Assembly: GCF_049969415.1 (NCBI RefSeq)
Contig: NZ_JBMFOX010000001.1
Span: forward strand, 2,405-66,404
Reading direction: 5' to 3'
DNA: 64,000 bases
From: Candidatus Hadarchaeum sp.
GTDB taxonomy: Archaea > Hadarchaeota > Hadarchaeia > Hadarchaeales > Hadarchaeaceae
A program made the translations under genes and the position numbers. Shown here piece after piece: positions 12,244 through 43,042 of the stretch. Under the pieces are notes generated by a model that saw nothing but the letters and a program-made list of their open reading frames with translations, did no database searches and had not been told where the DNA came from. Numbering within the stretch: position 1 is the first letter of the stretch; every line of letters begins with the position of its first letter.

Positions 12244-13821
12244 ATGAAAAAAGTACTGGTCACCTTAATCTGTTTAACGCTCATCGCCGTGCTGGTGGGA
12301 TCGACGGCGCCTCCCGTGGCGGCCGCCGAAGAGGGCCTGTCGCTCACCGCTGAGTACACGCTGCGGTACCAAATCCAGCTGCCTTACCAAGGAACCTACT
12401 ATCCGGGCAGGACTTCCATCCGCGTGGAAATATACGACATCCCGATATCCTCCGACCGTCAGAAGGTCCAGGCGACGCTGGATCAGGGCAGCATCCAGAC
12501 CATCAACGGCAGGGACGTCTGGGTCATCGAGACGACAACCATTTATACCAACAACATCTTCACCGGCACCTTCGTGGTCACCGTGGATCTGACAAACACC
12601 GCCGCCGTGCCGCACCAGCCCCTGCCGACCGCGGTGGACGAGGAGGTGGCGCAATACCTCCAGCCCGACGAATACGTCACCGTTTCCGCCGAGGTGGCCA
12701 ACCAAGCGCTGCAGCTGGTGGGCGAGGCCGGCAACGATGTCCCGAAAATCATCGCCAAGTTCGTCGATTGGATCAAGAAAAATGTCACCTACGACGAGGC
12801 CAAGTGGGCGGCGAGGCTTTCCGGAGCCAAGATCTCCGACCTGACCGACAATGAAATGCTGATGGTTCGCTCCGGCGTCTGCACCGACTACGCCAACCTG
12901 TTCCTAGGCTTCTGCCGGGCTGTGGGCCTTCCGGCACGGAGTGTTTTGGGATATGGCTTGAGGAGTGAGGAAAAGGACCTCTACCAAGAGATCCAGAGCG
13001 CGACGAGCCACGCCTGGGTCGAGGTCTGGATTCCGAACTACGGATGGCTAACGGTGGACCCCACCTGGGGAGACATCGGCGACGTGCGCAAGATCATCAC
13101 TGCCAAGACCCGTGAAGAGGGCTGGCACTACTGGTACCAGGATGTTCCACCTGGCTCCGGGATAACGGCCTCGGGCGTCAAGTACAGCATCGTCCTCACC
13201 GGCTGGGAAGTCGTCAACAAGGTCACCCCGGTAGCGCTGGCGCTGGGTGAAGCGGGCAACGAGCTGAACTTCAACCTCACCAACATCTCGCCCATACCCT
13301 TCTTGGACAACGTCCTCATCAGAAGTTGCCTCTGGCAGGACGGGACTTGGTCGGAATGGTCTGATGTCTCCAGTGAGATAATATTTCTCAACCCCCAGGA
13401 AACCTACACCTACCGCGCTGCCAAGGAGAGCGGCGTAGGCTACCACGTCTGGTCCAGGATGGCCGAGAACGGGCTGGTGAACTGGCAGTATCCCCAAACC
13501 ACTACCACCTACACCACCACGCCGCAGGAAACCACCCCAACCGGACCCTCGATTCCCACGGAGCTGACGGAGATGCTGCCCTTCGTCGTGGTGATAGTAA
13601 TCATGGCGATCTTGGGCGCGATAGCGTCGACCCGAAGAAGGAGAGCGCTACCTCGCCAGAAACCGACTGCAACTCCGGAGCCCGAACCAGAAGCTGCCAC
13701 CGCGCCGGAGCCGACACGGGCGCTGGCAATCTGCCCCAAATGCAACGCGCGGGTTCCCGCAGAGGCAAAGTTCTGCACCGAATGCGGCGCCGACCTGAAG
13801 CCGAGAAAGCGCAGGACCTGA
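12244..13821 (+). CDS. Transglutaminase-like cysteine protease domain protein. Signal peptide, extracellular domain, Thr-rich linker, TM helix, cytoplasmic zinc ribbon
   Basis: Cys/His/Asp triad context GVCTDYANLF...SHAWVEVW...GWLTVDPTWGD. C-terminal CPKCNARVPAEAKFCTECGADLKP. Confidence 0.7.
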   Translation: MKKVLVTLICLTLIAVLVGSTAPPVAAAEEGLSLTAEYTLRYQIQLPYQGTYYPGRTSIRVEIYDIPISSDRQKVQATLDQGSIQTINGRDVWVIETTTIYTNNIFTGTFVVTVDLTNTAAVPHQPLPTAVDEEVAQYLQPDEYVTVSAEVANQALQLVGEAGNDVPKIIAKFVDWIKKNVTYDEAKWAARLSGAKISDLTDNEMLMVRSGVCTDYANLFLGFCRAVGLPARSVLGYGLRSEEKDLYQEIQSATSHAWVEVWIPNYGWLTVDPTWGDIGDVRKIITAKTREEGWHYWYQDVPPGSGITASGVKYSIVLTGWEVVNKVTPVALALGEAGNELNFNLTNISPIPFLDNVLIRSCLWQDGTWSEWSDVSSEIIFLNPQETYTYRAAKESGVGYHVWSRMAENGLVNWQYPQTTTTYTTTPQETTPTGPSIPTELTEMLPFVVVIVIMAILGAIASTRRRRALPRQKPTATPEPEPEAATAPEPTRALAICPKCNARVPAEAKFCTECGADLKPRKRRT

Positions 13822-13836
13822 GACGATCCCGGCCGC

Positions 13837-15780
13837 CTATGGATTCCCCTGGCTTATCAGAGAAAACGACAAAGAGGTTCCGCTTACGTAGGATTGCTCG
13901 CAACCGATCGTGTTTCCGCCCAAGGTCGCCGTAAAGTTCCATGTGGACGTGCTACCGGTCTCTTCCACGTAGTATGAATAGGTGCCCTTGAGCGTGTTCC
14001 CATAAATTCTCCCGGAAACTGTCCCAGAACAGGAGGTGTAACCCGCAACTTCACCTGATGAATCCCAGCGCAGCTGAACGCCAGTTATGCTCACGGTTCC
14101 GGAGAAATAGCCGTCGCTGACGGACTTGATATCCCAAGTTAGCTCTCCGCCGTCATTGTAGCTCCACGGCGTGCGAGGATTTTTTCCGACCGAGGTGTAG
14201 GTCCCCGACCATGTCCCGGAGATATCGGGTGTCGGTGCATCCCTTGGGAAGAGCTCGTTGGCCTTGGCCAGCGCAGCCGCCAGCGTGGGCTTGGTCCGAT
14301 AGGTGCCGATAACCGGGGCCGCCTCGAGGATGGCTTTCTTGATTTCCCAGCTTGACAGGTCCGGACGCTCCCCGGCCAACGCCGTGGCCAGGCAGGTGAA
14401 CTGCGGAGCGGCGAAAGAGGTGCCGTTCAGGCCTGCGGGCATCTGGGCATAGATTATATCGTCCGGGTTCTCGCTGGTGTTAAAGGCCCGGATGCGCTCG
14501 TTATTGCCGTCCAAGCCACCAGCGATAATCACGTGGTCCCAAGCGTTGGGGTATTTTTCCCTCAAATCGGCCAGCTGCCCCGTGAGGTCGACGCCCATGT
14601 TCCCGGCCGCGATGGATATTAGAATGTGATCGAGGTAGGGCTGGCCCATGACCTCCATCCCGTGGAGGATTCCCGCGAGGAACTGGTACTCCCCCGTTTG
14701 GATCTTCGTGACGTCAGCGCTCTCGACGCCGTGCCGGTCGCTGCCATCAGCGAGGCCGTCCCTGTAACCCAAAGAAAGGTTAATCGCTGTCACCCGGTCG
14801 GCGTCCTTGGCGTTGATCATGGTCAAGGCGATTGCGGGAACGATGGAACCTCCATTGATGTACCCCTTTTCCGTGCCGTTGGGCTGGTAATAAACGTCGA
14901 CCTCGGACTTGGCCGTGGCCGATGACGTGCAGCCGCTGGCGATATCGGAAACGTTGGTGCCGTGGTGGGTGGAACCGTCGTTGGACCAAGCATCGATGAT
15001 TACTTGGTTGCTGTCGAGGGCACCCGAATCGTAGGCATCCCAAAACCAGCCACTGGTCTGCTCGGCATCCACATAAGTTATTCCTTTCTGGGCCAAGTCG
15101 ATCGGTGTGCAGGGGAAAGCATCATCCACCCAAGATTCATCCCACAGGTTGCTGATGAAGCCGGCTTCTTCCCCCGTGGTAACGCGTGCCCAATAGTAGC
15201 CGCAGACGGGCACTCCGAGGACCAGCTCCCCGCCGAGGTATTCTACCCCGGCCACCACCGTCGCATTCTTGGTGCCCTTTTTCGTCAAAATGACGACCAG
15301 GCCGGAGTAGGCCTCCACGCCGGTGATGGTAGTCCCGTCCTTGGCGACATAGGAGATCTCGGTGACCACCGGATAACCGCCGCCATAGGGGATTACTCCG
15401 TCAACCCTGTCGTCGAACGGGCGCGTCGATATGGCGGTTGTGGTAGTTGGGCTCGTCGTTTGCGCGGTCGTTGTCGTGTTTGTGCTGCTCGTCGTCGGTG
15501 GTGGAATTTGCCCCTCCATCGAAGCCAATGCTGCCGTGGCCACCATGGCCACAATCAATATCAAAAGAATCGTGTACGGCAAAGGTCTACTTTTCGCCTT
15601 TGGTCTCCCGGTCGACGTCTGGCGTGCCACCGGGGCCTCCGATCGGCTTTCGAACTTCGGACCCGTCAAACCTGAAGGTGGTGTTCTAAACGACGGTCCG
15701 ACGAAAATCTTGGCACCGCACTCCGGGCAGAACTTTGCTCCGCTGTCAACTCTAGCGCCACACTCACGACAATACGACAA
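13837..15780 (-). CDS. S8 (subtilisin-family) serine peptidase. N-terminal zinc ribbon, TM anchor, Thr-rich linker, protease domain
   Basis: HGTNVSDIASG (His) and GTSFAAPQFTCLA (Ser) motifs. N-terminal YCRECGARVDSGAKFCPECGAKI. Confidence 0.8.
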   Translation of the reverse strand: MSYCRECGARVDSGAKFCPECGAKIFVGPSFRTPPSGLTGPKFESRSEAPVARQTSTGRPKAKSRPLPYTILLILIVAMVATAALASMEGQIPPPTTSSTNTTTTAQTTSPTTTTAISTRPFDDRVDGVIPYGGGYPVVTEISYVAKDGTTITGVEAYSGLVVILTKKGTKNATVVAGVEYLGGELVLGVPVCGYYWARVTTGEEAGFISNLWDESWVDDAFPCTPIDLAQKGITYVDAEQTSGWFWDAYDSGALDSNQVIIDAWSNDGSTHHGTNVSDIASGCTSSATAKSEVDVYYQPNGTEKGYINGGSIVPAIALTMINAKDADRVTAINLSLGYRDGLADGSDRHGVESADVTKIQTGEYQFLAGILHGMEVMGQPYLDHILISIAAGNMGVDLTGQLADLREKYPNAWDHVIIAGGLDGNNERIRAFNTSENPDDIIYAQMPAGLNGTSFAAPQFTCLATALAGERPDLSSWEIKKAILEAAPVIGTYRTKPTLAAALAKANELFPRDAPTPDISGTWSGTYTSVGKNPRTPWSYNDGGELTWDIKSVSDGYFSGTVSITGVQLRWDSSGEVAGYTSCSGTVSGRIYGNTLKGTYSYYVEETGSTSTWNFTATLGGNTIGCEQSYVSGTSLSFSLISQGNP

Positions 15781-15982: not shown

Positions 15983-16059
15983 TGGTGCGGCCGGCGGGAT
16001 TCGAACCCGCGTAGCAGGCTCGGGAAGCCTGAGTCTTAACCAAGCTGGACCACGGCCGC
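15983..16059 (-). tRNA. tRNA-Gly, anticodon CCC. 15983-15985 encode the 3' CCA
   Basis: Hand-folded cloverleaf: 7-bp acceptor GCGGCCG/CGGCCGC, anticodon stem CAGGC/GCCTG with loop TTCCCGA, T-arm GCGGG-TTCGAAT-CCCGC, discriminator A plus CCA. Confidence 0.8.
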
Positions 16060-16083
16060 CCAAGAAAACTATTGAATCCCCAA

Positions 16084-16878
16084 CTAAAGCCTTTCGCGCG
16101 CCAGCTCGGTGAGTTCGGTCTTGGTCAGCAGTCCGACCAGTTCACCGTCGAGGTTCAGAACCGGCAGGGCGGAAAACCGCTTCTCCAGCATGAGCTTCGC
16201 CGCCTCGGGGAGCCTGGTGTCGGTCCTGACCGTCGTCGGCGGCTGCGTCATGATGTCCCCCACCAGAAGGTTCCTGATGCGCTCGCTCTTGTACTTGTCC
16301 GGGACCACCTCCTGAAACGCCGCCAGCTTCATGGCCACGTCCCTCGTCGTCACAATCCCGACCAAGGCCCGGTTCTCCACCACAGGCAGGGCCAGTATCT
16401 CCTCCTCGAGAAGAAGCTTCCGCGCGTGGATCACCCTGTCGGCGGGCGAAACGGTGAGGGGGCTGGCCCGCATGACCTGCCCCACATAGACATCGTCGTA
16501 CTCCATGCAGACCTTGGCGAAATCCATCTTGGTCACGATGCCCACCAGCTTTCCCCCCTCGAGCACGGGCAGCCCGCTGATGTCATGGTCCAGCATCAGC
16601 TCGGCGGCCCTCTTCGCCGTGACATCCGGGGCCACGCTGATGGGATCGGGGGTCATGACGCTAGAGATGTGCAGCCGGCTGGGGGGCAGCCGGTAGGCGT
16701 GCAGCGATCCCAGTTCCCGGGCGATGTCCTTCTCGGTCAGCATCCCCACCACGCGGTCGCCCTCGACGGCAACGATCCTGGAGATCTGCGCCCGCCTCAT
16801 GCAATCGATGGCATCGGCCAGTGACCGGTCCTTGTCCAGGGCAATCACGGGTGAACTCATTATCTGGCTGGCCCTCAT
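16084..16878 (-). CDS. CBS-domain protein (about 4 CBS domains)
   Basis: Repeated CBS pattern (h-h-G-h-h-T..Dh). 4-nt overlap with the next gene. Confidence 0.8.
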   Translation of the reverse strand: MRASQIMSSPVIALDKDRSLADAIDCMRRAQISRIVAVEGDRVVGMLTEKDIARELGSLHAYRLPPSRLHISSVMTPDPISVAPDVTAKRAAELMLDHDISGLPVLEGGKLVGIVTKMDFAKVCMEYDDVYVGQVMRASPLTVSPADRVIHARKLLLEEEILALPVVENRALVGIVTTRDVAMKLAAFQEVVPDKYKSERIRNLLVGDIMTQPPTTVRTDTRLPEAAKLMLEKRFSALPVLNLDGELVGLLTKTELTELARERL

Positions 16879-17735
16879 TCAAACCCCGCCCTGCGGATTC
16901 CTCTGAGCAGGTCGGTCTTGGTCACGATGCCGACCAGCTCCTCACCCTCCACCACCGGTATGCCGCTCATCCCGCTCTCCATCATCAGCGCCGCGGCCTC
17001 AGCGGCGTCGGCGTCCGGGTAAACCGTCACTGGGTCCCTGCGCATAATATCATCTGCAGTAAGCAGCGCCACATATTTAACATATCGGCCCCGCGGTCTG
17101 CCGCCCCGCTCCACCTTTCTCGTGTACCTGACCTCCCTCTCCCTCACCCCCTTCTCCGGATGCTCGAGCTGGGCGAAGGCTAGGTCCCTGTCCATTATCA
17201 CCCCCACGGGCTTCTTCCCCTCGGTCACCACCACGCTCCGGACGTTGCACTCCTCCATCATCTCAACGATGCGCGCCACCGATTGTCGGCGGTTGACCGT
17301 GACCACGTCCCTGCTCATCAGCTCCCTCACCTTAAACCTCTTCCCCAGCAGCCCTGAAAAATGTCTCACCACATCGGTCTTGGTCAGAATCCCGACCAAC
17401 CGCTCGCCATCCAGCACCACCAGGCTGCTGACATCCCTATCGAGCATCATGACCACGGCCTTGTTGACATCGGTGCCCGGAGAAACCGCGTGGACCTCCC
17501 TGCTCATGACGCGGGAGACCAGCCCGTTATCCCAGGTGCGCAGGCGCCAGGACGGTGAACCCGCCCTGAGCCGGGAAACGATGTCGCGGACGGTCAGCAG
17601 CCCAACGACCCTGCCCCGCTCCATCACCACCAGCCGTTTCACCTTTCCCCTCAGCATCAACCGTTTCGCGTGGGCCAGCGTGTCGGTCGGCTTCACCACC
17701 AGCACCGGCGCGCTCATCAGCTCCCGGACCTTCAA
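16875..17735 (-). CDS. CBS-domain protein (about 4 CBS domains)
   Basis: CBS repeats; overlaps both flanking genes by 4 nt. Confidence 0.8.
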   Translation of the reverse strand: MKVRELMSAPVLVVKPTDTLAHAKRLMLRGKVKRLVVMERGRVVGLLTVRDIVSRLRAGSPSWRLRTWDNGLVSRVMSREVHAVSPGTDVNKAVVMMLDRDVSSLVVLDGERLVGILTKTDVVRHFSGLLGKRFKVRELMSRDVVTVNRRQSVARIVEMMEECNVRSVVVTEGKKPVGVIMDRDLAFAQLEHPEKGVREREVRYTRKVERGGRPRGRYVKYVALLTADDIMRRDPVTVYPDADAAEAAALMMESGMSGIPVVEGEELVGIVTKTDLLRGIRRAGFE

Positions 17736-18649
17736 AGCAACAACCTCATCAGGTCGTGCTCGGTAATTATCCCCAACAGTTCCTCACCGGAGACGACGGG
17801 CAATCCGCCGCAGCCCCGCTGGTGCATGATTCCGGCGGCCTCACCCACGTCCATCTCCGGGGCGGCTTTAACGACCTCGCGCGTCATGATTTCCCCGACG
17901 CTGATGGACATCGCGTCCTCAAACCTTTCCGAGCTCAGGTGGTCAAAGATTCTGTTGGAGCTGAGGTAACGCAGGATGTCCATGCTCGTCACGATGCCCA
18001 CCAGCCTGCCGCCGCTCAGGACGGGAAGCCGGCGAAAACCGCGGGACACTATGGTGCGCGCGGCGTCCAGGATCCTGAAGGAAGATTCAGCGGTAACGAC
18101 GTGGCGGGACATGTAGTAGCTCACCTTGGCCCCGGTCTCCTCCGGGACGAACCGGAGAAAATCGTGCTCCGAGACGATTCCGACTATTTTCCCGTCATCG
18201 TCCAGTATCGGGACCCCGCCGACACCTTTGTCGAGGATGAGCCGGGCAACCTCGGTTATCGACATGCGGCTGGTCCCGTAGGTCAGGTCCCTCTCCATGA
18301 CCACCCTCACCGGCTCATTGATCGCCGCCAGAAAGTTACCGCCGAACTTTACCTTGATGATGTTGAACTTCTCCCCGCCGCCAAGAAATTCTAGGATGTC
18401 CCTGGTCCTGACCACGCCCACCAGCCTCTTGCTCCCGGGTTCGGTCACCGGCAGCCTTCTTATCCCCTCCTTCACCATCAGGTCGACCGCATTTTTTATT
18501 CTCATCGTCTGGGTCACCGAGACCACCGGCTTCTTGGCTATGGTCATTATGTCGCCCTCCTTGCGGTGTACGCGAGACTTGAAGTCGACGGGGCCTCGGT
18601 CCAGAGATTTATAGTGGGGCATCCTCCGCATGCTTTCACCCGCAGGCAA
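17732..18649 (-). CDS. CBS-domain protein (about 4 CBS domains)
   Basis: CBS repeats. Confidence 0.8.
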   Translation of the reverse strand: MPAGESMRRMPHYKSLDRGPVDFKSRVHRKEGDIMTIAKKPVVSVTQTMRIKNAVDLMVKEGIRRLPVTEPGSKRLVGVVRTRDILEFLGGGEKFNIIKVKFGGNFLAAINEPVRVVMERDLTYGTSRMSITEVARLILDKGVGGVPILDDDGKIVGIVSEHDFLRFVPEETGAKVSYYMSRHVVTAESSFRILDAARTIVSRGFRRLPVLSGGRLVGIVTSMDILRYLSSNRIFDHLSSERFEDAMSISVGEIMTREVVKAAPEMDVGEAAGIMHQRGCGGLPVVSGEELLGIITEHDLMRLLL

Positions 18650-19454
18650 ACCTGACGATATCCGAACGGCTCAAAATGCCCACCAGATCTCCCTCCGAAA
18701 CCACCGCCAGCCGGCCAATTTTTTTCTCCAGCATCAGATCGATGGCTGCGGGAAGAGGGGTTTGAGGGGAGACCACGATGGCCGGCGTTCTCATCACCGA
18801 TTTCACGCGCGGCGGCGACTTGAAACGGCCTTTGTCCGACTCCTCCGAGAGGCGGACAGTCCCCGACCTGATTATGTCGGAGCGGGTGATCATCCCCAGC
18901 ACCTGTCTTGACCTCCGCCGCTTATCATACCTGACCACGGGCAGGCCGGAGCAGTTTGTTTTCTCCATCAGGTCCCAGATCTTGGAGATCTCATCCTCGG
19001 GCTCGCAGGTAACCACATCCGTAACCATTACTTCTCCCACCCGTCTTTCCGGGGAAATTCTCCCGGAAATCTGGGCCAAGACATCGTCGAGTCTTACCAG
19101 GCCGACCACCGTCATGTCGTTCGGTCCCTTCACCACGGGAACGTCGGAGACCTCATGCCCGACCATCTGCCTCGCCAGATTAACGAGCGACATCTCTGGG
19201 GTGGCCACCAGCCTGTAGGGGGACATAATCCCGGAAACGGCAATGTTGGAGCGGGTCGAGGTCACCTGCAGGACCTCCTTGATCGTCACAATCCCGGAAA
19301 GTCTCCCAGCATCGATGACCGGCAGGCTCTTAAGTCCGGTTGAACGCATCACCGCCCGTGCCTTGGTGACCAGATCGTTGGGGGCCACAAATATGCTGCA
19401 GGGCTTCATCACATCTTCAACTTTCACGCCGCTGAGCACTTCACGGCATGCCAT
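18636..19454 (-). CDS. CBS-domain protein (about 4 CBS domains)
   Basis: CBS repeats. Confidence 0.8.
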   Translation of the reverse strand: MACREVLSGVKVEDVMKPCSIFVAPNDLVTKARAVMRSTGLKSLPVIDAGRLSGIVTIKEVLQVTSTRSNIAVSGIMSPYRLVATPEMSLVNLARQMVGHEVSDVPVVKGPNDMTVVGLVRLDDVLAQISGRISPERRVGEVMVTDVVTCEPEDEISKIWDLMEKTNCSGLPVVRYDKRRRSRQVLGMITRSDIIRSGTVRLSEESDKGRFKSPPRVKSVMRTPAIVVSPQTPLPAAIDLMLEKKIGRLAVVSEGDLVGILSRSDIVRFACG

Positions 19455-19462
19455 TAAACCAT

Positions 19463-19993
19463 CTACTCGCCCATCGAATCACGACAATTTTCACACACCC
19501 ACATGCCATTAACTTCATAGAGATCGGTGGTGACCTCGCCGCAGTTCTCGCAGACGCTCTGATCCACGCGTTCCTCCGGAATTCTTTCCGGATGGGCCAT
19601 CAGCTCGGAGAGCGCCGGAGATATCGCGGTGATATCCGACGAGGTAACGATGCCGACCAGCTTTCCGTTTTTAACCACAGGAAGCCGGCGGATCTTGTTG
19701 CTGGCCATGATCTTGGCGGCTTCAACGATGTCGGCGTCGGGGCCGATTGTGATCAGGGGGGCCGACATTATCTTCCCCACCCGAATCTTGCTCGGCTTGA
19801 GGTCCTCGCTAACGACCTTCATCAAAAGGTCCTTCTCGGTCAGAATACCAACGGGCTTCTTTCCATCAACCACCACGATGCTGCCGACGTCCTTGCTCGC
19901 CATCAGCTTGGCGGCCCGAGCCACATTGGTTCCCCGGGGCACCGTCAAAACTTCAGTCCTCATGGCCTCGCTGACCGGAATCACCCGCTTCAT
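19463..19993 (-). CDS. CBS-pair protein with a C-terminal zinc ribbon
   Basis: Two CBS domains plus CENCGEVTTDLYEVNGMWVCENC. Confidence 0.8.
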   Translation of the reverse strand: MKRVIPVSEAMRTEVLTVPRGTNVARAAKLMASKDVGSIVVVDGKKPVGILTEKDLLMKVVSEDLKPSKIRVGKIMSAPLITIGPDADIVEAAKIMASNKIRRLPVVKNGKLVGIVTSSDITAISPALSELMAHPERIPEERVDQSVCENCGEVTTDLYEVNGMWVCENCRDSMGE

Positions 19994-20067
19994 CGTGCCA
20001 CCGATTTCATATTGTCATTTTCTACTTAAATCTTTAAGGCACCGAAAAACAGTTAATTCTGATTTGC

Positions 20068-29908: not shown

Positions 29909-30412
29909 TCAGAACCCCTTAAACTCTGTCTCCGGGGCTCCGCATATGGGACATCTCTTCGGCGCCTCACCCTCAACGGTGTAGCCGCATTTTTTGCAGA
30001 TGTAGATGGTCCCGATTTCAATGTCCGAGCCGCTCAGCACGCTCTGCCTAGCCTGCTGGTACATCCCGGCATGCACCTTCTCCGCCTGCAGCGCATAGTT
30101 AATGCTCCGCTGCGCTCCCAGCTCGTTCTGGAGATCGGCGACGGCTTTAAACGCCGGGTACATCTCCTCAACCTCATATGTCTCACCGTCAATCGCCGCC
30201 TGCAAATTTTCCGCTGAACTTCCGACCTGCCCGAGCGTTCGCAGATGGTTCGCTGCATGCACCAGTTCCGCGTAGGAAATGGCCCGGAAAAGTCTGGCCA
30301 CGTTTTTAAGCCCCTCTTCCTCGGCCCTCTCGGCAAATATGGCGTACTTCATGTGGGCCTGGCTTTCTCCCGCAAAAGCTTCTTTCAAATTTTTCTCGGT
30401 CATTTTCTTCAT
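29909..30412 (-). CDS. rbr: Rubrerythrin
   Basis: N-terminal ferritin-like EAFAGESQA...; C-terminal rubredoxin-like CKKCGY...CPICGAP. Start set at [13 protein letters not shown]. Confidence 0.8.
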
Positions 30413-30508
30413 CCAATCCCCAAGAGTTAATTTATCTACGGATTTATTAAACTTTTGTCCGAAAAAAGGATTTATATGTCCCAAATTATTATTAAACAGG
30501 ATGAAAAC

Positions 30509-30934
30509 ATGGTGGACGAGCTCGATCTGAAGATTCTGCAAATGCTGGAGAACGACGGCAGCCTATCCTTCACGGAAATTGCCAGGAGGCTGAGGCTGAA
30601 CGAGTCAACGGTCCGGAAAAGAGTTCTTGCCCTGAAGGAGAAAGGAGTGATAAAAAAATTCACCATCGTCGTCGATCATGAAAAGATCGGCTTCTCCACC
30701 TTGGCAGTGGTCGGCATCGACGCCACACCGGATAAACTGCTGGAAATCGCGCAAAAATTGGCGGAACTGCCTGAGACTAAATACGTGGCCACCTCAACGG
30801 GAGACCATATGATAATGACCGAAATCTGGGCCAGGGACGGCAGGGAGCTCTCCAGAATCCTCTCCGAAAAAATCGGTGCCATTGAAGGGGTGAAAAAAAT
30901 CTGTCCGGCTATCATCCTCGAAAAAATCAAGTGA
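30509..30934 (+). CDS. Lrp/AsnC-family transcriptional regulator
   Basis: HTH LDLKILQMLENDGSLSFTEIARRL plus RAM domain. Start at MVDELD. Confidence 0.8.
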   Translation: MVDELDLKILQMLENDGSLSFTEIARRLRLNESTVRKRVLALKEKGVIKKFTIVVDHEKIGFSTLAVVGIDATPDKLLEIAQKLAELPETKYVATSTGDHMIMTEIWARDGRELSRILSEKIGAIEGVKKICPAIILEKIK

Positions 30935-31023
30935 ATTAATCCCGTCTGGTTTTATAGGCTATTGAAAAAATCCCACCAATCTTGAAATACTGCGGCTGGA
31001 TTTTGCTGGATTGTGTAAAGAAA

Positions 31024-31383
31024 TCAGGCCGAAAAATGCTTCTTGTATAGCTCGTCCCGGATAACATCGATGACTTTTGTTCCGACATGAACTTTGGCGA
31101 CCTTCAACTTTTCCTCCTTAAGAAGCGATAGCGCCCCAAGCCCAATCTCGGCGGCCACGACCACGTCCACACCGAACTCTTTCAGCTTCTGAACAACCAC
31201 CCGGCCCCTGCCCCGGGAAAGTCCCGCCGCCGGATTTTTCATTATCTCCAAGTGAACCTTTTTCCCCTCGACTGTGGCTATGGTGAATGTCTCCGCCTTG
31301 GCAAAGTGGTCTGCAACTTCGTCTCCTAGCCCTTTCTGTCCCTTGGTAGCAATGGCCACCTTAACCTTGGCCATATGTGTCAC
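31024..31383 (-). CDS. NifX/NafY-like dinitrogenase FeMo-cofactor-binding domain protein
   Basis: KVAIATKG...HFAKAETF...VVAAEIG pattern. Confidence 0.6.
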   Translation of the reverse strand: MTHMAKVKVAIATKGQKGLGDEVADHFAKAETFTIATVEGKKVHLEIMKNPAAGLSRGRGRVVVQKLKEFGVDVVVAAEIGLGALSLLKEEKLKVAKVHVGTKVIDVIRDELYKKHFSA

Positions 31384-31648
31384 GGGATTTTGATTCTTCC
31401 AGCTGTTTAATCCGTTCCTGAACGAGCTCCAGCTCTTGCTTCAATCTCTCCATATGGTTTTTGAGATAGTCGATTTCTTCTTCCGGAGTCAATGCCATCG
31501 CGGGTGGACGCGGAGCGTAGAGCCACCAGCAGGCTCCCGGACCGTAGAGCCAACCGGGCCGCTGCCAGGGTGGCAAGTAGCTGAACGGACCATGTCCCGG
31601 CCAATCACCGAACCGCCGATATCCCTTCCGACCGAACATTTCCATCAC
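31361..31648 (-). CDS. DUF5320-like small protein
   Basis: Trp/Pro-rich N-terminal half followed by a C-terminal coiled coil. Typical partner of NifX-like genes. Confidence 0.4.
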   Translation of the reverse strand: MMEMFGRKGYRRFGDWPGHGPFSYLPPWQRPGWLYGPGACWWLYAPRPPAMALTPEEEIDYLKNHMERLKQELELVQERIKQLEESKSRDTYGQG

Positions 31649-31774
31649 CGAAATATGTTCTATAGCACAAAATATAAAAAGCTTTGGTTCTGACCAATTC
31701 AGCGGCCATAGGAAATACTAAACGCGTCCGTTCGAAAGTTGGAATATCTGCCGCTGTACCGATTTCTCGAAATC

Positions 31775-32686
31775 TCAAATCTCTATTCCTAGAAATATTC
31801 TAACCCCAACACCGATTAGAAACGTCAGCGCGGCAACCCCGAGGCTGATTGCCGCCATTTCGGCAAATCTCCGCAGAAAAGGAAATCCCCTAGCAACTGA
31901 CACGTAGTAGGTGAAGACAAATATAATGAAAACGGCGAACAGTATTGTCAACCCCAGTGAGAGGAGTGTTTCCTGAAACAGGAGAAACGGAGCTATCAAA
32001 AGCATGACTGTGGCCAGATAAGCTACTCCTGTGTAAAGCGCGGCCTTACCCGGACGTTTTGATGAGTCCTCCGCCTTGGTCGACAGATACTCGGAAGTTG
32101 CCATAGAAACGGAGGCAGCGATGCCCGTGATCAACCCCGCAACGGCAACATAGCGGCTGTTCTCGAAGGCAAAGCTGAACCCGGCCAGTGCCCCAGTTAG
32201 CTCCACCAGAGCGTCGTTCAGTCCCAGCACCATGGAGCTAACATACTCAAGCCTTTCCTCGTGAATTGAATCGATAAGTTGTTTCTCGTGATCCTCCTCA
32301 TCCCTTAGGATTTCCTCAGCCTCCGGTATAATTTTTGACAGCTTTTCATAGTTTTCCTGCGCTCGCTCCTCGCTTTTTTCCATCAATTTCAGGCCAAAGG
32401 TTATTCCGAAAATTCTGGACACAAAAAGATAAAACCAGACCAACGGCCCGTTTGGCTTCACCTCGAGACCCGTGTGGTCCTTCCAGAAATTATAGTGTCT
32501 GAGCTCATCATCCGCCATCCGGCTCAATATCTCCTTAGTCCTCTGGTCCCTCGCCGAAGACGACAGCCTTTTGTAAATGTGAAGGCCGTTGATCTCCTCC
32601 TTCTGCGCAGCAACGAGGCTGTTTTTAATCTCGGTGCTCAAAGGATGAGAATTCATGAAGGTCAATTTATTCTGGACTCCTAACAA
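31775..32686 (-). CDS. VIT1/CCC1-family iron transporter with an N-terminal ferritin-like domain
   Basis: Ferritin-like ExxH N-domain plus a C-terminal 5-TM VIT1 region. Confidence 0.7.
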   Translation of the reverse strand: MLGVQNKLTFMNSHPLSTEIKNSLVAAQKEEINGLHIYKRLSSSARDQRTKEILSRMADDELRHYNFWKDHTGLEVKPNGPLVWFYLFVSRIFGITFGLKLMEKSEERAQENYEKLSKIIPEAEEILRDEEDHEKQLIDSIHEERLEYVSSMVLGLNDALVELTGALAGFSFAFENSRYVAVAGLITGIAASVSMATSEYLSTKAEDSSKRPGKAALYTGVAYLATVMLLIAPFLLFQETLLSLGLTILFAVFIIFVFTYYVSVARGFPFLRRFAEMAAISLGVAALTFLIGVGVRIFLGIEI

Positions 32687-32766
32687 TTTAGATTTTGTCT
32701 TCCGGCAGTGCTACTTAATTCTACCAGAACAATCAGCAGGGTCATTGTCCGTGAGAACAAGTTTAT

Positions 32767-33552
32767 TTATTCTTTCGCTCTCTTAAGCCATCTCAACTTG
32801 CCTCTACCAATCTTCACTTCCACGCGAGGTTTGGTGGCAAGGTAAACCGAGCGAACGTTCATCCCGACAAAGTCATCCTGAACTCGCGTCAGTTCCTGCA
32901 GCGTCAGCGGTCTCACCCGACTGGGTCTCAATGGAGTATTTAACTGGACCTCATCGGGATTTATCTCCTTGGCGATTTTGGCAATTTCACGTGAAAATTT
33001 CATGTTCTCCGGGACTAACATGACCTCCAGCTGAAACCTGCCCCTGAACTCAGCGCGAAATTTCTTTAAACCCTCAACTATCTCGTGGAAATAAATGCCC
33101 GAGTGCGGCCGATTTACCGCCTGAAGTAACTGCTCGTCGGAAACATCCAGCTTGCCTTTCACGATATCTGCCTTGGCCAAATCTTCCCTTACCTCCCTCC
33201 GGATTTTGAGCGAAGAATTGGTCAGAACCGCCACCGGAAGTCCCGAGATTTCTCGGGCTATATCTATAAGCTGCCCCAAGTTCCGAGCCAGCGTTGGTTC
33301 ACCCGTGCCAGAGAAGGTCACCACATCGGCCCTAACCTTATTAACTGCCCGCTTGAGGGCGCGCGCGACCTGGTCTTCGGTGACAAAAACCCTCCGTTCG
33401 ACCGACTTCTCGGTTGTGGGTCCGAGAGAGCAGTAGATGCAGTCGAAGGAGCAAATTTTTCCTTTCTGACAAATCGGATCCACGCCCAGTGATCTCCCCA
33501 GTCGCCAAGAGGAAACCGGACCGTAAACAATTGCCATAAATCGACCAGCCAC
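32767..33552 (-). CDS. Radical SAM domain protein
   Basis: CSFDCIYC (CxxxCxxC) near the N-terminus. Confidence 0.7.
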   Translation of the reverse strand: MAGRFMAIVYGPVSSWRLGRSLGVDPICQKGKICSFDCIYCSLGPTTEKSVERRVFVTEDQVARALKRAVNKVRADVVTFSGTGEPTLARNLGQLIDIAREISGLPVAVLTNSSLKIRREVREDLAKADIVKGKLDVSDEQLLQAVNRPHSGIYFHEIVEGLKKFRAEFRGRFQLEVMLVPENMKFSREIAKIAKEINPDEVQLNTPLRPSRVRPLTLQELTRVQDDFVGMNVRSVYLATKPRVEVKIGRGKLRWLKRAKE

Positions 33553-33648
33553 ATTCTCCTTTAGCCCATTTTTGAACTCGCGACAAATAAATGCCTCGGT
33601 TGCGCCTTAGAAAAGTAACTGCCGATACCAATTGGATTTACCAAGAAA

Positions 33649-34386
33649 TCACAACATCTTGAGCGCCCACATCAGAGCAATTCCGATTATAAACGCGAAG
33701 AAGGCCACCAAGGTTCTGGTGGTGCTCGCCTCTTTGTGCAGCTCGGGAACCAGATCCGAGGCCGCGATGTAGAGAAATCCGCCCGCGGCGAAGGGCAGCA
33801 AAAACATCATCGCGATTTCATGGTGGGGGAACAAATAATAGCCCAGAATTCCTCCTGCCACCGCCGTCAAAGCAGTCACAAAATTCAAAAACAGCGCCTT
33901 TCGAGAGCTGAGACCGCCGTAGACCAAGACGCCGAAATCTCCCAGCTCCTGCGGAATTTCGTGTGCAGCGATGGCGATGGTGGCGGTCAATCCGAGAGGT
34001 ACGCTCACGACGAAACTGGCCGCCATGATCAAGCCATCGATAAAATTGTGCACGCCATCACCAATGAGGTTTAGATAAGCGAAGGTATGTATCGGGCACG
34101 CTCTCTCATGACAGTGCCGCCAGAGCAGTTTCTCCAGGATAAAAAAAATCACGAAACCTACGATCACCATCAAGAAGACATCTTCCAAACTGGCGGTTCC
34201 GCTAGCTATCGCTTCCGGCAACAGGTGGAGAAAACCGCCGCCGATCATAGCCCCAGCAGCAAACCCGATTTGTGCCAGCAATATTTTCTTTAACATATTT
34301 TCTGATAACACCAGTGTGGCCGCCCCGATGAATGAAATCAGGCTAACGATAAATGTAGCCAAAAGAATCCAGAGAACCTCGATCAT
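33649..34386 (-). CDS. ZIP-family divalent metal transporter
   Basis: HEIPQELGDF motif; polytopic. Confidence 0.8.
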   Translation of the reverse strand: MIEVLWILLATFIVSLISFIGAATLVLSENMLKKILLAQIGFAAGAMIGGGFLHLLPEAIASGTASLEDVFLMVIVGFVIFFILEKLLWRHCHERACPIHTFAYLNLIGDGVHNFIDGLIMAASFVVSVPLGLTATIAIAAHEIPQELGDFGVLVYGGLSSRKALFLNFVTALTAVAGGILGYYLFPHHEIAMMFLLPFAAGGFLYIAASDLVPELHKEASTTRTLVAFFAFIIGIALMWALKML

Positions 34387-34387
34387 T

Positions 34388-34831
34388 TCAACCCTCCCGT
34401 TTACATCTTACGTCGGTGAAGATGGTTTTCTTGCAGGGACATGATGTGGGGTGTCCATAGGTGCGACAGATGGTATTAATCAGTTCCATCGAGGCATGAT
34501 AATCCAGTTTAGAAGCCTCTTTACAAGCGCTCTTGGGGTCGTACTTTAACAAATCCGCAAAGAGCACCTCCAAGATGCGGTGTTTTCTTAGCAACTTTCG
34601 GGCCTCTCGTTTGCCTTCCTCAGTCAACTCGACGCCTCGATAGGGCCGGTGGACAAGTAACCGTTTCTTGGAAAGATTTCGCAACACTTCAGTTACCGTG
34701 GCGGGTCGAACTTTGAAAATTTTTGCGATACTTGTGGTACTGACATCCGATGAGCCCTCAACCTGCTTTCTGTAGATCAACATTAGATACTTGGTCTCTG
34801 TCTCTGTCAAAGCTGCTTCCGCCTTCATCAT
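34388..34831 (-). CDS. DtxR/MntR-family metal-dependent repressor with a Cys-rich C-terminal tail
   Basis: DtxR HTH pattern (TTSIAKIFKVRPATVTEVLRNL...). C-tail CKEAS...CRTYGHPTSCPCKK...RCK. Confidence 0.75.
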   Translation of the reverse strand: MMKAEAALTETETKYLMLIYRKQVEGSSDVSTTSIAKIFKVRPATVTEVLRNLSKKRLLVHRPYRGVELTEEGKREARKLLRKHRILEVLFADLLKYDPKSACKEASKLDYHASMELINTICRTYGHPTSCPCKKTIFTDVRCKREG

Positions 34832-34838
34832 TATCAGA

Positions 34839-34861
34839 AAATTTAGGATTTACCTAAATTT
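34839..34861 (+). promoter_or_regulatory. Perfect 9-5-9 inverted repeat AAATTTAGG-ATTTA-CCTAAATTT, 8 bp upstream of the dtxR-family start. Candidate DtxR-type operator overlapping the promoter
   Basis: Read directly from the sequence. The TTAGG...CCTAA ends match the terminal half-sites of the DtxR/IdeR box (TTAGGTTAGCCTAACCTAA). Confidence 0.4.
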
Positions 34862-35002
34862 AACATTTTTGGTTGATAAGACGCAAAAACTTACGTGGCG
34901 ACGATTTAAAATCCAGACGAAACATCAAAAAATGAGTGTATGTCAGAAGTTGCTTTAGATGAACTTTGCCAAAATATTTGTTTTTAACCCGCGGTGCCGG
35001 AC

Positions 35003-35448
35003 ATGATCGGGAAAACTAAATCATTTGAATATGCACTGGAAAGGGCCGGGATGGCAAGGTTTAACTTGGTCTCAGTCTCAAGCACTATCCCGCCCGGGTG
35101 TAAAATGATTAGCCGCGGAAAAGTTTGAAAATGCTCTCATACGGGCAAATTGTCTTTGGAGTTTTCGCCAGATGTTGCGGCAACGAAAGGGGGCGCCTGA
35201 TATCAGCGAGTATCGGCTGTGCGATACCTGCGAACAAGAACACCTATGAGTACATCAGCGGACATGATGCCTGCGGGCAAACCGCGAATGAAGCGGGCGA
35301 CTATGCTGAAGATCTGGCCGCATCAACGCCCGCTGGCTTCCTAGGCCTAACTTTCGATCCTGAGAAAATTTGGAATGAGAGAAAGCAGATTTGGAAAATT
35401 TCGGGGAAAATAGTAAGAACCACCAACATCACCCAGACTACCCTATGA
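35003..35448 (+). pseudogene. pdaD: Pyruvoyl-dependent arginine decarboxylase (PdaD), apparently frameshifted at an A4 run (~35119-35122). Pseudogene or sequencing indel
   Basis: Frame A (35003-35128) gives MIGKTKSFEYALERAGMARFNLVSVSSTIPPGC, matching the PdaD Ser-Ser self-cleavage region. Frame B (35113-35448) gives ...LISASIGCAIPANKNTYEYISGHDACGQTANEAGDY..., which I align by hand with the PdaD alpha chain. The two frames differ by -1. Confidence 0.55.
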
Positions 35449-36369
35449 AGAAAGGAATGTGGTCAACGGTCTTTGCCGCGACTGTATTTGTTCTGTAATA
35501 TTCTTTGGTCCACCAAAAGTAACCGAATCGCCTGTCCTAATCCTTCGACAATTTTTCCCAAACAGGCTAACAAACTTCGCGACGGCCCTGCTGCCCGTGC
35601 AGTGGCACGGCATCAGCGATTCCACGCTGAACTCCTTAAATTTCCCGGCGGTCCAAGTTATCCTTCCCGTGTCTGATTTATACAGATGAAAGCCACCCAA
35701 GACCGCGTGCAAGCAGCTGGAACCGGTCATCCTCTGAGCGCTTTCAATCGTGTTAACTATTCCAGCATGAGCACAGCCGGTGATGACCAACAACCCCGCG
35801 CCCTTGACCCTCACAAAAAGTGCCTGATCGTCAGGGAGGTTGTCCTTAACAAGCCTTCCCTCCCTCTTTGTCCTGAAACCCTTAACCTGCTCCAGCCGGT
35901 TGGTTCTTTTAATTTCACCGCTGACCCAGACACCTGGGACCAATTGGTAAGGTTTTTTATTTCGGATCAAAATACCGCCGGCGCTTTCGAGCTCCGCAGC
36001 CGTGCACGGCATGCCGATCTTCTTGGGCTTCTTCTTTTTTAACACAAATTTTGGTTCAAGCGCCTCTGGATGGAGAATTATGGGCAATTTTTTATTGATA
36101 AACTTCAAAACACCAAGAAGCCCGCCAGTATGATCGCTATGTCCATGGCTGAGGGCGATGTAATCCACTTTCTTCAGGTCAACACCAAGCCTTCTGGCAT
36201 TATCCAAAACCGCCTCCGCCTCAGGCCCGGCATCGAAAAGCAAATGGAGGCTGCCTCGGGCCGATTCAACTTCGATAAAAAAGGATAGCCCATGCTTCGC
36301 AACAAGGTCGGGCCTCCTTTTGGTGTCCTCAATCAGAACCGTAAGTTTCAGGCCATCTATCCCGCGCAA
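35443..36369 (-). CDS. MBL-fold metallo-hydrolase
   Basis: HGHSDHTGG motif. Confidence 0.75.
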   Translation of the reverse strand: MRGIDGLKLTVLIEDTKRRPDLVAKHGLSFFIEVESARGSLHLLFDAGPEAEAVLDNARRLGVDLKKVDYIALSHGHSDHTGGLLGVLKFINKKLPIILHPEALEPKFVLKKKKPKKIGMPCTAAELESAGGILIRNKKPYQLVPGVWVSGEIKRTNRLEQVKGFRTKREGRLVKDNLPDDQALFVRVKGAGLLVITGCAHAGIVNTIESAQRMTGSSCLHAVLGGFHLYKSDTGRITWTAGKFKEFSVESLMPCHCTGSRAVAKFVSLFGKNCRRIRTGDSVTFGGPKNITEQIQSRQRPLTTFLSS

Positions 36370-41291: not shown

Positions 41292-42130
41292 GGGAATTCG
41301 ACACTCCGACGAAAAACACTTGGTGTCCAGGCTGCAACAATTTCGGCATCCTAACCGCCGTCAAGCAGGCGCTGGCGGAACTGGTGAATTCCGGAGAAAT
41401 GAAACCGGAGGAGATTGTAATCCTATCTGGAGTGGGGTGCCACGGCAAGATATCCGATTACATCAAGGTCAACAGCTTTTACTGCCTGCATGGAAGAACG
41501 ATACCGCCGGCAATGGGGATAAGGGTTGCCAACCAGAAGTTGAAAGTCATTGCTTTTTCCGGCGACGGTGACGCCTACGCCGAAGGAATCAGCCACGTCA
41601 TCCACGCGGCGCGGAGAAATCTAGACATAACATTGGTCGTGCACGACAACGAAGTTTTTGCCCTGACGACATCGCAGGTGACGCCCACCACCAAGAAAGG
41701 ATTCAAGACAAAGTCCGCTCCAAAGGGAAGTTTTGAAACCCCACTAAATCCGCTGCATCTCATGCTATCGTGCGGGGCCACCTTTGTGGCTCGCGGATTT
41801 TCGGGTGATATAAAGCATCTTAAGTCAATACTAATCGAAGCCGTCAGACACCGTGGCTTTAGCTTCATTGACGTTATTCAGGAATGTGTGACCTTTAACC
41901 CAATCAAGGAAAAATACCTGCCCAAAATTTATGATCTCAACAAAGAAGGCCACAAGGTGACAGACTTCTCCGCCGCCTGGAAAAGGGCGAGCGAGATCGA
42001 AAGGATACCGATAGGGATCTTCTATCGGGAGGAGAGAGAAACGTACGAAAAACAGCTGCTGAACGAAAGAATCCTCGTGGAAGAAGGACCAGTACCATCG
42101 ATAAAAAAGGTACTTCAGGAATTCACTTGA
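41282..42130 (+). CDS. 2-oxoacid:ferredoxin oxidoreductase, beta subunit (TPP-binding)
   Basis: GCHGKISDY...GDGDAYAEG TPP motif. 10-nt overlap with alpha. Confidence 0.8.
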   Translation: MEMREFDTPTKNTWCPGCNNFGILTAVKQALAELVNSGEMKPEEIVILSGVGCHGKISDYIKVNSFYCLHGRTIPPAMGIRVANQKLKVIAFSGDGDAYAEGISHVIHAARRNLDITLVVHDNEVFALTTSQVTPTTKKGFKTKSAPKGSFETPLNPLHLMLSCGATFVARGFSGDIKHLKSILIEAVRHRGFSFIDVIQECVTFNPIKEKYLPKIYDLNKEGHKVTDFSAAWKRASEIERIPIGIFYREERETYEKQLLNERILVEEGPVPSIKKVLQEFT

Positions 42131-42236
42131 ATTATTTTGAAAAGCTTAAATCCCGGCGGGAAAAAACTACTTGCATGCCAATTGACCGGGATTTTACGGC
42201 GAAGAGAAAAAAGTCGGGGCGCACTTAGGACATGAT

Positions 42237-42485
42237 GTGTTGGGACCGGTCAATTCGCCGAAAGAACTTGGAATCAACGGCACTTCAGTGACAGTTGACT
42301 GGGATGTATGCAATGGGTGTGCAACTTGTTCCGAGGTTTTCTCCTGTCAACATATTCGACACGGTTGAGGTGCAAAACATCCCACCCCAAATAGAAAATC
42401 TGATCCGGCAAGAGAACCCGACTGCATAAAGTGCCTCGCCTGCAAAAGCAGCTGCCCGACCAAGGCCATCCGGATTGAAAAATAA
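42237..42485 (+). pseudogene. Degenerate 2x[4Fe-4S] ferredoxin-like ORF (a delta-subunit-like remnant) with an in-frame TGA at 42366-42368
   Basis: Frame 0: ...VTVDWDVCNGCATCSEVFSCQHIRHG-TGA-GAKHPTPNRKSDPAREPDCIKCLACKSSCPTKAIRIEK. The first Cys cluster is irregular and the second is canonical. The +1 frame reads SPVNIFDTVEVQNIPPQIEN between them. Confidence 0.3.
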
Positions 42486-42529
42486 TCCACCGCCAACGCC
42501 AATCTTCCAGTACCCAATCACGCCTCAAC

Positions 42530-43042
42530 TCACAAGAACCTCTGAAACCTGTCCTTTTTCGCCCGGCAGATGGGACAAACCTCAGGAGGCTCTTCCCGCG
42601 CGCACAAATATCCACAAACAACACAGCGCCACACGGGAAGTGAAATTCCGGAGATTCCAGTGGAAACCGATGCCAACTTTGCCCTTTCCCGCTCCCCAGG
42701 CGGCGGGCGTCTTTCCGGTATCGAGCCAATTGTCTTTTTTCCGTCCAGCACTTCTTGGGAGACATAAAGGCCGCAATAGCAGGCACCGTAATCGTTTAGA
42801 TCTGCGTCCCGGTAATCACAGGGGCAGATGATATCCAAGTCCTCTTCTTTCTTGCCGGAGGCCAATCTGCAGGGGCAGGACCAGTATCCGTATCTTTGTT
42901 CGTTTACCAGCAAGCCTTTCACGAGGCTTTTGGCAAACTCGACATCGTTATTGAGGTGGTAGCCTGCTGCCTCCGCCTCCTTTTTCAGCCTGTTGTAAAG
43001 ATTATCGACGCTTTCCGGAGTTATCAAAACTTCACCGCTCAC
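42530..43042 (-). CDS. Ferredoxin:thioredoxin-reductase catalytic-subunit-like domain fused to a C-terminal rubredoxin domain (FDR-type)
   Basis: CPCR...CPC...CYC motif; C-terminal WRCVVCGY...CPICRAKK. Confidence 0.65.

Follow-up and report, generated by a model that had tools for sequence, protein, structure and literature searches.

A CBS-domain gene array of Candidatus Hadarchaeum that is very probably a Sri ribosome-hibernation operon, with a conserved fifth gene

The window examined here, meaning the whole stretch of 64,000 nucleotides (nt) that was analysed, comes from a Candidatus Hadarchaeum sp. genome (assembly GCF_049969415.1, contig NZ_JBMFOX010000001.1, positions 2,405 to 66,404), and its subject is an array of five consecutive minus-strand open reading frames (ORFs) for CBS-domain proteins. 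Four of these genes, at 18636-19454, 17732-18631, 16875-17735 and 16084-16878, were assigned to sriA, sriB, sriC and sriD respectively and very probably form the ribosome-hibernation operon of this genome. The fifth, called G5 here, encodes a CBS pair and a zinc ribbon. In order of transcription the genes are as follows.

19463-19993, minus strand: G5, first-transcribed gene, 176 amino acids (aa), CBS pair (two Pfam CBS domains) plus zinc ribbon
18636-19454, minus strand: sriA ortholog, 272 aa, four CBS domains, isoelectric point (pI) 9.4; best PDB match 9ZNF chain 4
17732-18631, minus strand: sriB ortholog, 299 aa, four CBS domains, basic N-terminal tail, ATG at 18631; PDB match 9ZNF chain 5
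16875-17735, minus strand: sriC ortholog, 286 aa, four CBS domains, pI 10.3; PDB match 9ZNI chain 6
16084-16878, minus strand: sriD ortholog, 264 aa, four CBS domains; PDB match 9ZNG/9ZNI chain 7

When the four proteins with CBS tetrads were compared with PDB chains using phmmer, a single cognate Sri chain was far ahead for each, with E values of 1e-44 to 1e-54, and non-cognate Sri chains reached at best only 1e-16 to 1e-21. The reference structures 9ZNF, 9ZNG and 9ZNI are of the Methanosarcina acetivorans 70S ribosome with SriA and SriB, with SriD, and with SriC and SriD, respectively (Nissley et al., bioRxiv 10.64898/2026.01.19.700200). Their chains carry only the name 'CBS domain-containing protein', and chains 4, 5, 6 and 7 were identified as SriA, SriB, SriC and SriD from the chain lengths and the text and data statement of that paper. 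SriA (18636-19454) matched 9ZNF chain 4 with an E value of 1.2e-44 and 37% identity (next Sri chain 4.7e-16), and SriB, searched as the ORF 17732-18649, matched 9ZNF chain 5 with 1.1e-54 and 36% identity. SriC (16875-17735) aligned end to end with 9ZNI chain 6 (residues 1-280 to 1-280, 2.4e-44, 33% identity, next chain 3.7e-21), and SriD (16084-16878) matched chain 7 of 9ZNG and 9ZNI with 9.3e-47 and 36% identity (next chain 1.4e-21). BLAST against the aligned M. acetivorans segments gave the same pairing, cognate pairs scoring 158-189 bits and non-cognate ones no more than 90.

Family membership was defined by Nissley et al. from pooled hidden Markov model matches with E < 1e-35 followed by placement in a clade of the tree (bioRxiv 10.64898/2026.01.19.700200). 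The window proteins match their own subfamilies at the level that this rule asks for, with clade placement judged solely from the margin of the best match. They also have the Sri architecture, with four tandem CBS domains in 264-299 aa (the permitted range being 100-500), no HPF domain and no second tetrad. The four genes are adjacent and run sriA-sriB-sriC-sriD in the direction of transcription, which is the commonest arrangement and was reported from 529 GTDB species (Nissley et al., bioRxiv 10.64898/2026.01.19.700200).

The ORF listing of the window gave products of 264, 286, 305, 272 and 176 aa, in full agreement with an earlier note made from the sequence of this stretch. That note had counted about 18 CBS domains in proteins consisting almost wholly of them, and Pfam found just this: CBS (PF00571) was the only domain above threshold, in 4+4+4+4+2 = 18 copies, with whole-protein E values between 8e-32 and 6e-58, a result that cannot be due to chance. 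Two matches below threshold were disregarded, Beta_protein in SriA (16 bits, cut-off 27) and DUF7573 in G5 (20 bits, cut-off 30). The earlier note had singled out an embedded catalytic domain as the result that would undo its reading, and the Pfam search returned none in the five proteins. Matches to NCBIfam were partial, far under cut-off and confined to the CBS parts of enzymes and regulators, so that IMP dehydrogenase or another enzyme-attached CBS module was rejected as an identity. The CBS-domain anti-phage protein DS11 (NF053863) was likewise rejected, at 26-72 bits against a cut-off of 260.

The five paralogs are only 24-34% identical to one another and are therefore old duplicates, as the earlier note had supposed; recent tandem duplication was rejected on this ground and on the conservation of the array across phyla. 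No further CBS genes were found in the 64-kb window outside the array. The general expectation that multi-CBS genes of archaea are scattered around the genome does not hold for the Sri family.

Conservation was examined in a genome sample and a metagenome sample, each made up of the 80 best scan matches and hence skewed to relatives of the query rather than a census. The genome sample held the best 80 of 518 matches, with one genome per GTDB species, and was seeded with a three-sequence SriB alignment; an alignment of 16 diverse SriA proteins proved too divergent as a scan seed. ORFs in the loci were classified by BLAST against the five window proteins, and start codons elsewhere were picked by homology.

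Among the closest relatives, SriA was 100% identical to an annotated protein in a Candidatus Hadarchaeum sp. metagenome-assembled genome, G5 was 94-97% identical to Ca. Hadarchaeum proteins, and the same five genes with the same neighbours were present on three contigs. Around 30 of the 80 loci were from Hadarchaeota, with the rest from Methanobacteriaceae, Methanosarcinales (including ANME-2 and Methanoperedens), Methanocellales, Methanomicrobiales, Archaeoglobi, Hydrothermarchaeota and Bathyarchaeia. The order sriA-B-C-D was found in most of the 80. Loss of the array or of its linkage in relatives, which the earlier note had named as grounds for taking it as incidental, was not seen; relatives both close and distant have kept it. 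One complete G5-sriABCD cluster, laid out like the Methanosarcinales loci, lies on a contig binned as 'Anaerolineales bacterium' (L038, JAIWAT010000033.1), which is probably archaeal and was placed in a bacterial genome by a binning error.

Two groups of loci have lost members. Eight Hadarchaeota loci (L009, L011, L012, L014, L017, L018, L019 and L033) lack sriC and read G5-sriA-sriB-sriD, with sriD beginning about 10-25 nt past sriB; the contig of L009 ends about 490 nt beyond sriD. In these eight species SriD would therefore be without its small-subunit partner. Three Methanobrevibacter loci retain sriB and sriD only.

The long and short forms of SriB are set apart by an N-terminal extension, and SriC is set apart from SriC-short by a basic loop; in M. 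acetivorans the SriB extension threads into the peptidyl-transferase centre and exit tunnel (bioRxiv 10.64898/2026.01.19.700200). Both elements are present in the window proteins.

18548-18631, minus strand: N-terminal extension of SriB, 28 aa, MRRMPHYKSLDRGPVDFKSRVHRKEGDI, net charge +4, from alignment with M. acetivorans SriB and the 80 loci
17061-17168, minus strand: predicted basic ribosome-binding loop of SriC, residues 190-225, LEHPEKGVREREVRYTRKVERGGRPRGRYVKYVALL, from alignment to M. acetivorans SriC 191-225

The SriB residues RGPVDFKSRVHRKEGDI align with residues 45-61 of M. acetivorans SriB (phmmer), and the N-terminal motif M[RK][RK]...KS.DRGP..F[KE]S[RK]...EGD is kept in 80/80 related SriB loci. 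For long SriB, more than 15 residues aligned to M. acetivorans positions 27-56 are expected; approximately 23 were counted here, as 12 residues aligned to positions 45-56 by phmmer plus 11 upstream from the MRR start. In all 80 loci SriB begins at a conserved M/V-[RK]-[RK], which in the window is the ATG at 18631 (MRRMPHYK...), and a Shine-Dalgarno-like GGGTGA lies 4 nt upstream of this ATG. These sequence features set the start of sriB at the ATG at 18631 in place of the TTG at 18649, and the length of the protein at 299 aa in place of 305. The sriA-sriB junction accordingly becomes a 4-nt gap, replacing the 14-nt overlap of the earlier note, whose other junctions stand: an 8-nt gap between G5 and sriA, and 4-nt overlaps at sriB-sriC and at sriC-sriD. 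An exact-sequence look-up of the 305-aa ORF gave no match, public gene calls using different start codons. In public calls for Ca. Hadarchaeum relatives (L001-L003, 9447-10262), SriB begins at an internal Met and is 271 aa long, with the tail lost.

The SriC loop has 36 aa with 11 K/R and a net charge of +6, close to the 35 aa and +5 of the M. acetivorans loop, and its GG...RYVK core is conserved, which places the protein in SriC rather than SriC-short. By analogy, the loop is a predicted ribosome-binding element. A G-h-h-T/S-x-x-D motif associated with ribose binding occurs in most CBS units of the array, and in SriD it is present as G-h-h-T-x-x-D in CBS1-3, where it is compatible with nucleotide binding but is not proof of it.

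The published data for this family come from two methanogens. All four M. acetivorans Sri proteins inhibit translation in vitro, SriD being the most potent, and a delta-sriABCD strain shows a longer lag after 28 days of stationary phase together with loss of 30S subunits and of the 16S 3' end (bioRxiv 10.64898/2026.01.19.700200). On the ribosome, SriA occupies the large-subunit A and P sites and the SriB tail wedges against it; on the small subunit, SriD lies in the A site, obstructs the mRNA channel and contacts the decoding centre through two loops, and SriC, in the P/E sites, sequesters the anti-Shine-Dalgarno end of 16S rRNA (bioRxiv 10.64898/2026.01.19.700200). A clash between SriA and SriD confines the A/B pair and the C/D pair to separate ribosomes (bioRxiv 10.64898/2026.01.19.700200). 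In Methanolobus, the factors ARC-P and ARC-A were found on 84% of stationary-phase 70S ribosomes with AMP in the CBS pockets, and ATP triggers their release (Zhu et al., bioRxiv 10.64898/2026.01.19.700304).

From these data we infer ribosome binding and a corresponding physiology in Hadarchaeum. By homology, each Hadarchaeum Sri product would dock on idle ribosomes as a disc made up of four CBS domains. SriA would lie in the tRNA A and P sites of the large subunit, with the basic SriB tail packed on it and reaching into the peptidyl-transferase centre and exit tunnel; SriC would lie in the small-subunit P/E sites with its basic loop holding the 3' end of 16S rRNA, and SriD would fill the A site and mRNA channel. 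No single ribosome would carry both the A/B and the C/D pair. Binding would halt translation and shield rRNA from nucleases through long starvation, and a rise of ATP relative to AMP in the CBS pockets would release the factors. This energy-sensing part of the proposal is taken from the AMP occupancy and ATP release of ARC-P/ARC-A.

The closest known system is that of M. acetivorans, which shares the four consecutive genes in the same order with four CBS domains each, the one-to-one best matches (33-37% identity), the SriB tail motif, the basic SriC loop and a dual-CBS gene immediately upstream. It belongs to a different phylum (Halobacteriota as against Hadarchaeota), its SriD has an N-terminal extension of about 19 aa that is absent here (the alignment starts at chain residue 20), and its dual-CBS gene is reported as separately transcribed, whereas that of the window is 8 nt from sriA. 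ARC-P and ARC-A of Methanolobus, too, are a non-fused pair with four CBS domains each; they bind the small subunit, where they obstruct the paths of mRNA and tRNA, and correspond to SriC and SriD respectively, an equivalence drawn from binding sites and from the paper grouping them, not from sequence comparison; only these two small-subunit factors were studied in Methanolobus.

Fused relatives are more distant in form. Dri of Pyrobaculum calidifontis (PDB 9E6Q/9E7F) has an N-lobe homologous to SriA and a C-lobe homologous to SriC and covers the same ribosome regions, but is a single chain exceeding 500 aa in which two tetrads are fused, whereas here the tetrads are separate genes. Its chain 9e6q_3 matched the window proteins weakly (about 1e-17 to 1e-18), and Dri was rejected as an identity for the separate ORFs, all of at most 305 aa and none with a double tetrad. 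Hib/HibA/AHA (Nat Commun 2026, PMC13324472; PMC12934967) place an SriA-like tetrad on the large subunit in the same physiological role, but carry a fused HPF/RaiA domain. Pfam found no such domain in the five window proteins, and Hib/AHA was rejected on this basis.

It is very unlikely that the five proteins are instead a free-standing hetero-oligomeric adenine-nucleotide sensor or buffer for an enzyme or transporter encoded elsewhere, which is close to what the earlier note had proposed. The presence of five CBS-only proteins with no effector domain would suit such a module, as would the ribose-binding-associated motif in most CBS units. The top PDB match of the window SriB also points this way, being the crystallised MJ1225 of Methanocaldococcus jannaschii (PDB 3KH5/3LFZ), a non-Sri chain aligned over all four CBS domains with an E value of 7e-56, level with M. 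acetivorans SriB. MJ1225 has been described as an archaeal AMPK-gamma homolog. It begins at CBS1 and has no N-terminal tail, and is therefore of the SriB-short class, whereas the window SriB has the tail. The orthologs of the tetrad proteins have been seen directly on the ribosome, which they block sterically, their loss affects ribosome stability, and no kinase or other effector gene is conserved beside the array in the flanks of the window and of close relatives. Nor can SriA and SriD share a ribosome, which argues against a single five-part complex.

Parts of the earlier proposal survive under the Sri assignment. Hetero-pairs are retained, with SriA/B and SriC/D as alternative pairs on the ribosome in place of a free-standing five-part assembly. 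There is indeed no attached effector domain and the target is encoded elsewhere, in the form of the ribosome, but the proteins would themselves be the effectors, acting as steric plugs of its peptidyl-transferase, tRNA and mRNA sites. Nucleotide sensing holds at least for the counterparts of SriC/D, ARC-P/ARC-A, and nothing supports buffering.

Another view, that the CBS tetrads are transcription regulators like HhpR of Pyrococcus yayanosii with the zinc-ribbon protein as their DNA-binding partner, we regard as extremely improbable. Partial NCBIfam HhpR matches were obtained, and in a 2026 paper HhpR and the Sri proteins share one sequence cluster of archaeal CBS tetrads. The matches amount to 37-90 bits, far under the 520-bit cut-off of NF053603, and HhpR was rejected on these scores; the cognate Sri chain beats every other CBS protein, apart from MJ1225 being level for SriB, and the strongly acidic ribbon of G5 (net charge -8, ortholog median -7) is unlike a nucleic-acid-binding surface.

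Several points stand against the assignment to a Sri hibernation operon. Identity to the characterised Sri proteins is only 33-37%, and a Sri function in Hadarchaeota would be carried over by homology. Some Hadarchaeota are without sriC, which means that this lineage does not strictly require all four factors of the model. The SriB tail is about half as long as in M. acetivorans (28 aa before CBS1 vs about 60) and may reach less far down the exit tunnel.

G5 was considered separately. In its product a flexible linker joins a Pfam CBS pair to an acidic zinc ribbon with four Cys at the C-terminus, as the earlier note had read from its CxxC...CxxC ending.

19484-19552, minus strand: zinc-ribbon segment of G5, residues 148-170, CENC-x15-CENC, read from sequence

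The two CENC motifs are at residues 148-151 and 167-170, and none of the four Cys varies among 15 diverse orthologs. An AlphaFold (AF2) model with a predicted local distance difference test score of 88.7 shows the CBS pair and a small ribbon, with residues 135-142 disordered. Among 70 orthologs the median pI of G5 is 5.25, and its neighbour SriA is basic with a median of 9.4; the linker plus ribbon has a net charge of -8 here (ortholog median -7, range -13 to -3). This acidic ribbon is unlikely to bind rRNA and more likely contacts a basic protein surface.

The linkage of this gene to sri clusters was assessed in both directions. Informative loci, those of the SriB-anchored 80-locus sample with sriA and enough upstream sequence, numbered 68, and in 68/68, across several phyla, the gene next to sriA on its upstream side and on the same strand encodes a CBS pair and a C-terminal CxxC...CxxC. 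Between G5 and sriA the median spacing is 8 nt and the largest 47 nt, while the sriA-sriB spacers exceed 100 nt in 21/70. G5 is absent from the three Methanobrevibacter loci that lost sriA and sriC. For the reverse direction, a metagenome scan seeded with a diverse G5 alignment gave 71 informative loci, and a Sri gene follows the G5-like gene in 50 of them (sriA in 38, a stand-alone sriD in 10 and sriB in 2).

The nearest structural counterpart of G5 is TA0289 of Thermoplasma acidophilum ('CBS-rubredoxin-like protein', PDB 1PVM/2QH1), which likewise begins with a CBS pair and ends in a ribbon with four Cys and whose entries are the only full-length PDB matches of G5. Identity is 26% with an E value of 5e-12; orthology of the two is uncertain because this match is weaker than those of G5 to generic CBS proteins. 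Recombinant zinc ribbons of the TA0289 type bind iron and transfer electrons in vitro. A dual-CBS gene, MA4647, also lies upstream of sriA in M. acetivorans (bioRxiv 10.64898/2026.01.19.700200), and G5 is its counterpart. In the searchable literature, a single mention of MA4647 was all that was found on the physiological function of TA0289 or MA4647, and the G5-sri linkage appears to be new relative to that literature.

Solely from synteny and charge, we infer that G5 has an accessory or regulatory role towards the Sri proteins and does not stand beside their genes by chance. A further suggestion, which we make tentatively, is that G5 and the MA4647 class are an integral fifth Sri component missed by the 2026 studies and acting as an energy- or redox-sensing anti-factor, chaperone or release factor. 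G5 would have been missed because one 2026 survey retained no proteins under 200 aa, and because MA4647 was set aside elsewhere for want of bridging reads. The case for G5 as a controller of Sri binding and release is that it is acidic, is tightly coupled to the basic SriA and also precedes stand-alone sriD. What keeps Sri proteins off ribosomes during growth is a question raised by Nissley et al. (bioRxiv 10.64898/2026.01.19.700200).

It is also possible, if a little more doubtful, that G5 is a conserved neighbour with an unrelated role, such as the rubredoxin-like redox protein proposed for TA0289, and that the functional unit comprises four genes. Several observations count for this and against a fifth Sri component. 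No reads bridging MA4647 and sriA were reported in M. acetivorans (bioRxiv 10.64898/2026.01.19.700200), and the dominant class of native hibernating Methanolobus ribosomes is described with two extra factor densities only, an SriC/D-type pair, and with no protein of the G5 kind (bioRxiv 10.64898/2026.01.19.700304). In the metagenome sample, 21/71 G5-like genes (about 30%) have no nearby Sri gene and some have other recurrent neighbours. TA0289-type proteins also exist in Thermoplasma. Weighing on the other side are the 68/68 adjacency over several phyla at no more than 47 nt, tighter than sriA-sriB, and the presence of G5 before stand-alone sriD together with its absence from Methanobrevibacter loci without sriA and sriC; conservation of this kind over such an evolutionary distance is unusual for unrelated genes.

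Of the unlinked G5-like loci, 12 were examined, and two downstream contexts recurred: an amidohydrolase, or a Mut7-C RNase followed by AMMECR1. The amidohydrolase has about 447 aa. The unlinked loci concerned are L098 (5043-6139), L129 (5080-6220), L119, L128 and L157; L100 (5129-6469), L103, L115 and L120; and L156 (2386-4425). At one unlinked locus a gene for NFACT, a ribosome quality-control protein, lies just upstream of the G5-like gene.

In the window, G5 is probably co-transcribed with sriA because the gap between them is only 8 nt, and the array as a whole is a tightly packed unit of CBS-only genes that is probably co-transcribed, in agreement with the earlier note. In several loci of Methanosarcinales and Methanobacteriaceae (L035, L037, L041, L043, L049-L051, L069 and others), the sriA-sriB spacer is 90-330 nt and G5 and sriA overlap or are at most 30 nt apart, which suggests that the transcription units there are G5-sriA and sriBCD. 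The G5-sriA overlap in Methanobacterium or Methanothermobacter species is 8 nt. This division sits awkwardly with the RNA-seq of M. acetivorans, in which sriABCD is one unit and MA4647 is separate.

The array is bounded by the following two features.

19994-20067, strand not applicable: AT-rich divergent intergenic region between G5 and rpiA, 74 nt, read from sequence
15983-16059, minus strand: tRNA-Gly(CCC), predicted by ARAGORN, 24 nt downstream of sriD on the same strand

The first of these is the likely promoter region, as it is the sole sizeable non-coding gap upstream of the array. It contains a TTTAAGTA-like element about 30-37 nt ahead of the G5 ATG, and GGTGG stands immediately upstream of that ATG. 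A scan for sigma-70 promoters and intrinsic terminators, a model not applicable to archaea, gave no terminator-like site inside the array and one chance-level promoter match.

The tRNA-Gly, correctly noted before as adjoining the array, is a lineage-specific neighbour outside the Sri system. With ARAGORN, many Hadarchaeota loci showed a tRNA gene immediately after sriD in the same orientation, and none of the scanned loci of other phyla did. It is tRNA-Gly(CCC) in the window and in L007 (5068-5143), L010 (8483-8559), L026 (9781-9856) and L028 (7217-7294), and none was found in the closest relatives L001 and L005. The same slot in other Hadarchaeota holds calls of 90-97 nt typed as Met, Trp or '???' (L013 6731-6821, L016 4821-4912, L020 9597-9688 and others), which may be an intron-containing tRNA that was mis-typed.

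Genes on either side are unrelated to the array. Those upstream and divergent encode ribose-5-phosphate isomerase A (rpiA), NAD(P)HX dehydratase and GGGP synthase; those downstream encode a zinc-ribbon/S8-peptidase protein and then a transglutaminase-like protein. The two downstream genes, at 12244-13821 (plus strand) and 13837-15780 (minus strand), are convergent; their products are probably membrane-bound or secreted, and both bear a short CxxC...CxxC zinc ribbon at one end, C-terminal in the transglutaminase-like and N-terminal in the S8-subtilase-like protein. Farther off, G+C content falls to 0.48-0.51 at 30001-36000 and 42001-44000, against about 0.56-0.62 over most of the window, and these stretches may be foreign or otherwise distinct DNA.

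The array is the Hadarchaeota version of the Sri operon described in January 2026, a system already known, and the assignment provides a correct annotation for genes labelled only 'CBS domain-containing protein' or 'IMP dehydrogenase' in databases, where public gene calls cut off the N-terminal tail of SriB. The near-universal linkage of G5 to sri points to a candidate for a missing regulator of archaeal ribosome hibernation, a lead that is testable in M. acetivorans, for which genetics, in-vitro translation and cryo-electron microscopy exist. A complete and compact Sri cluster fits the uncultured deep-subsurface Hadarchaeota, for which dormancy is probably central to survival.

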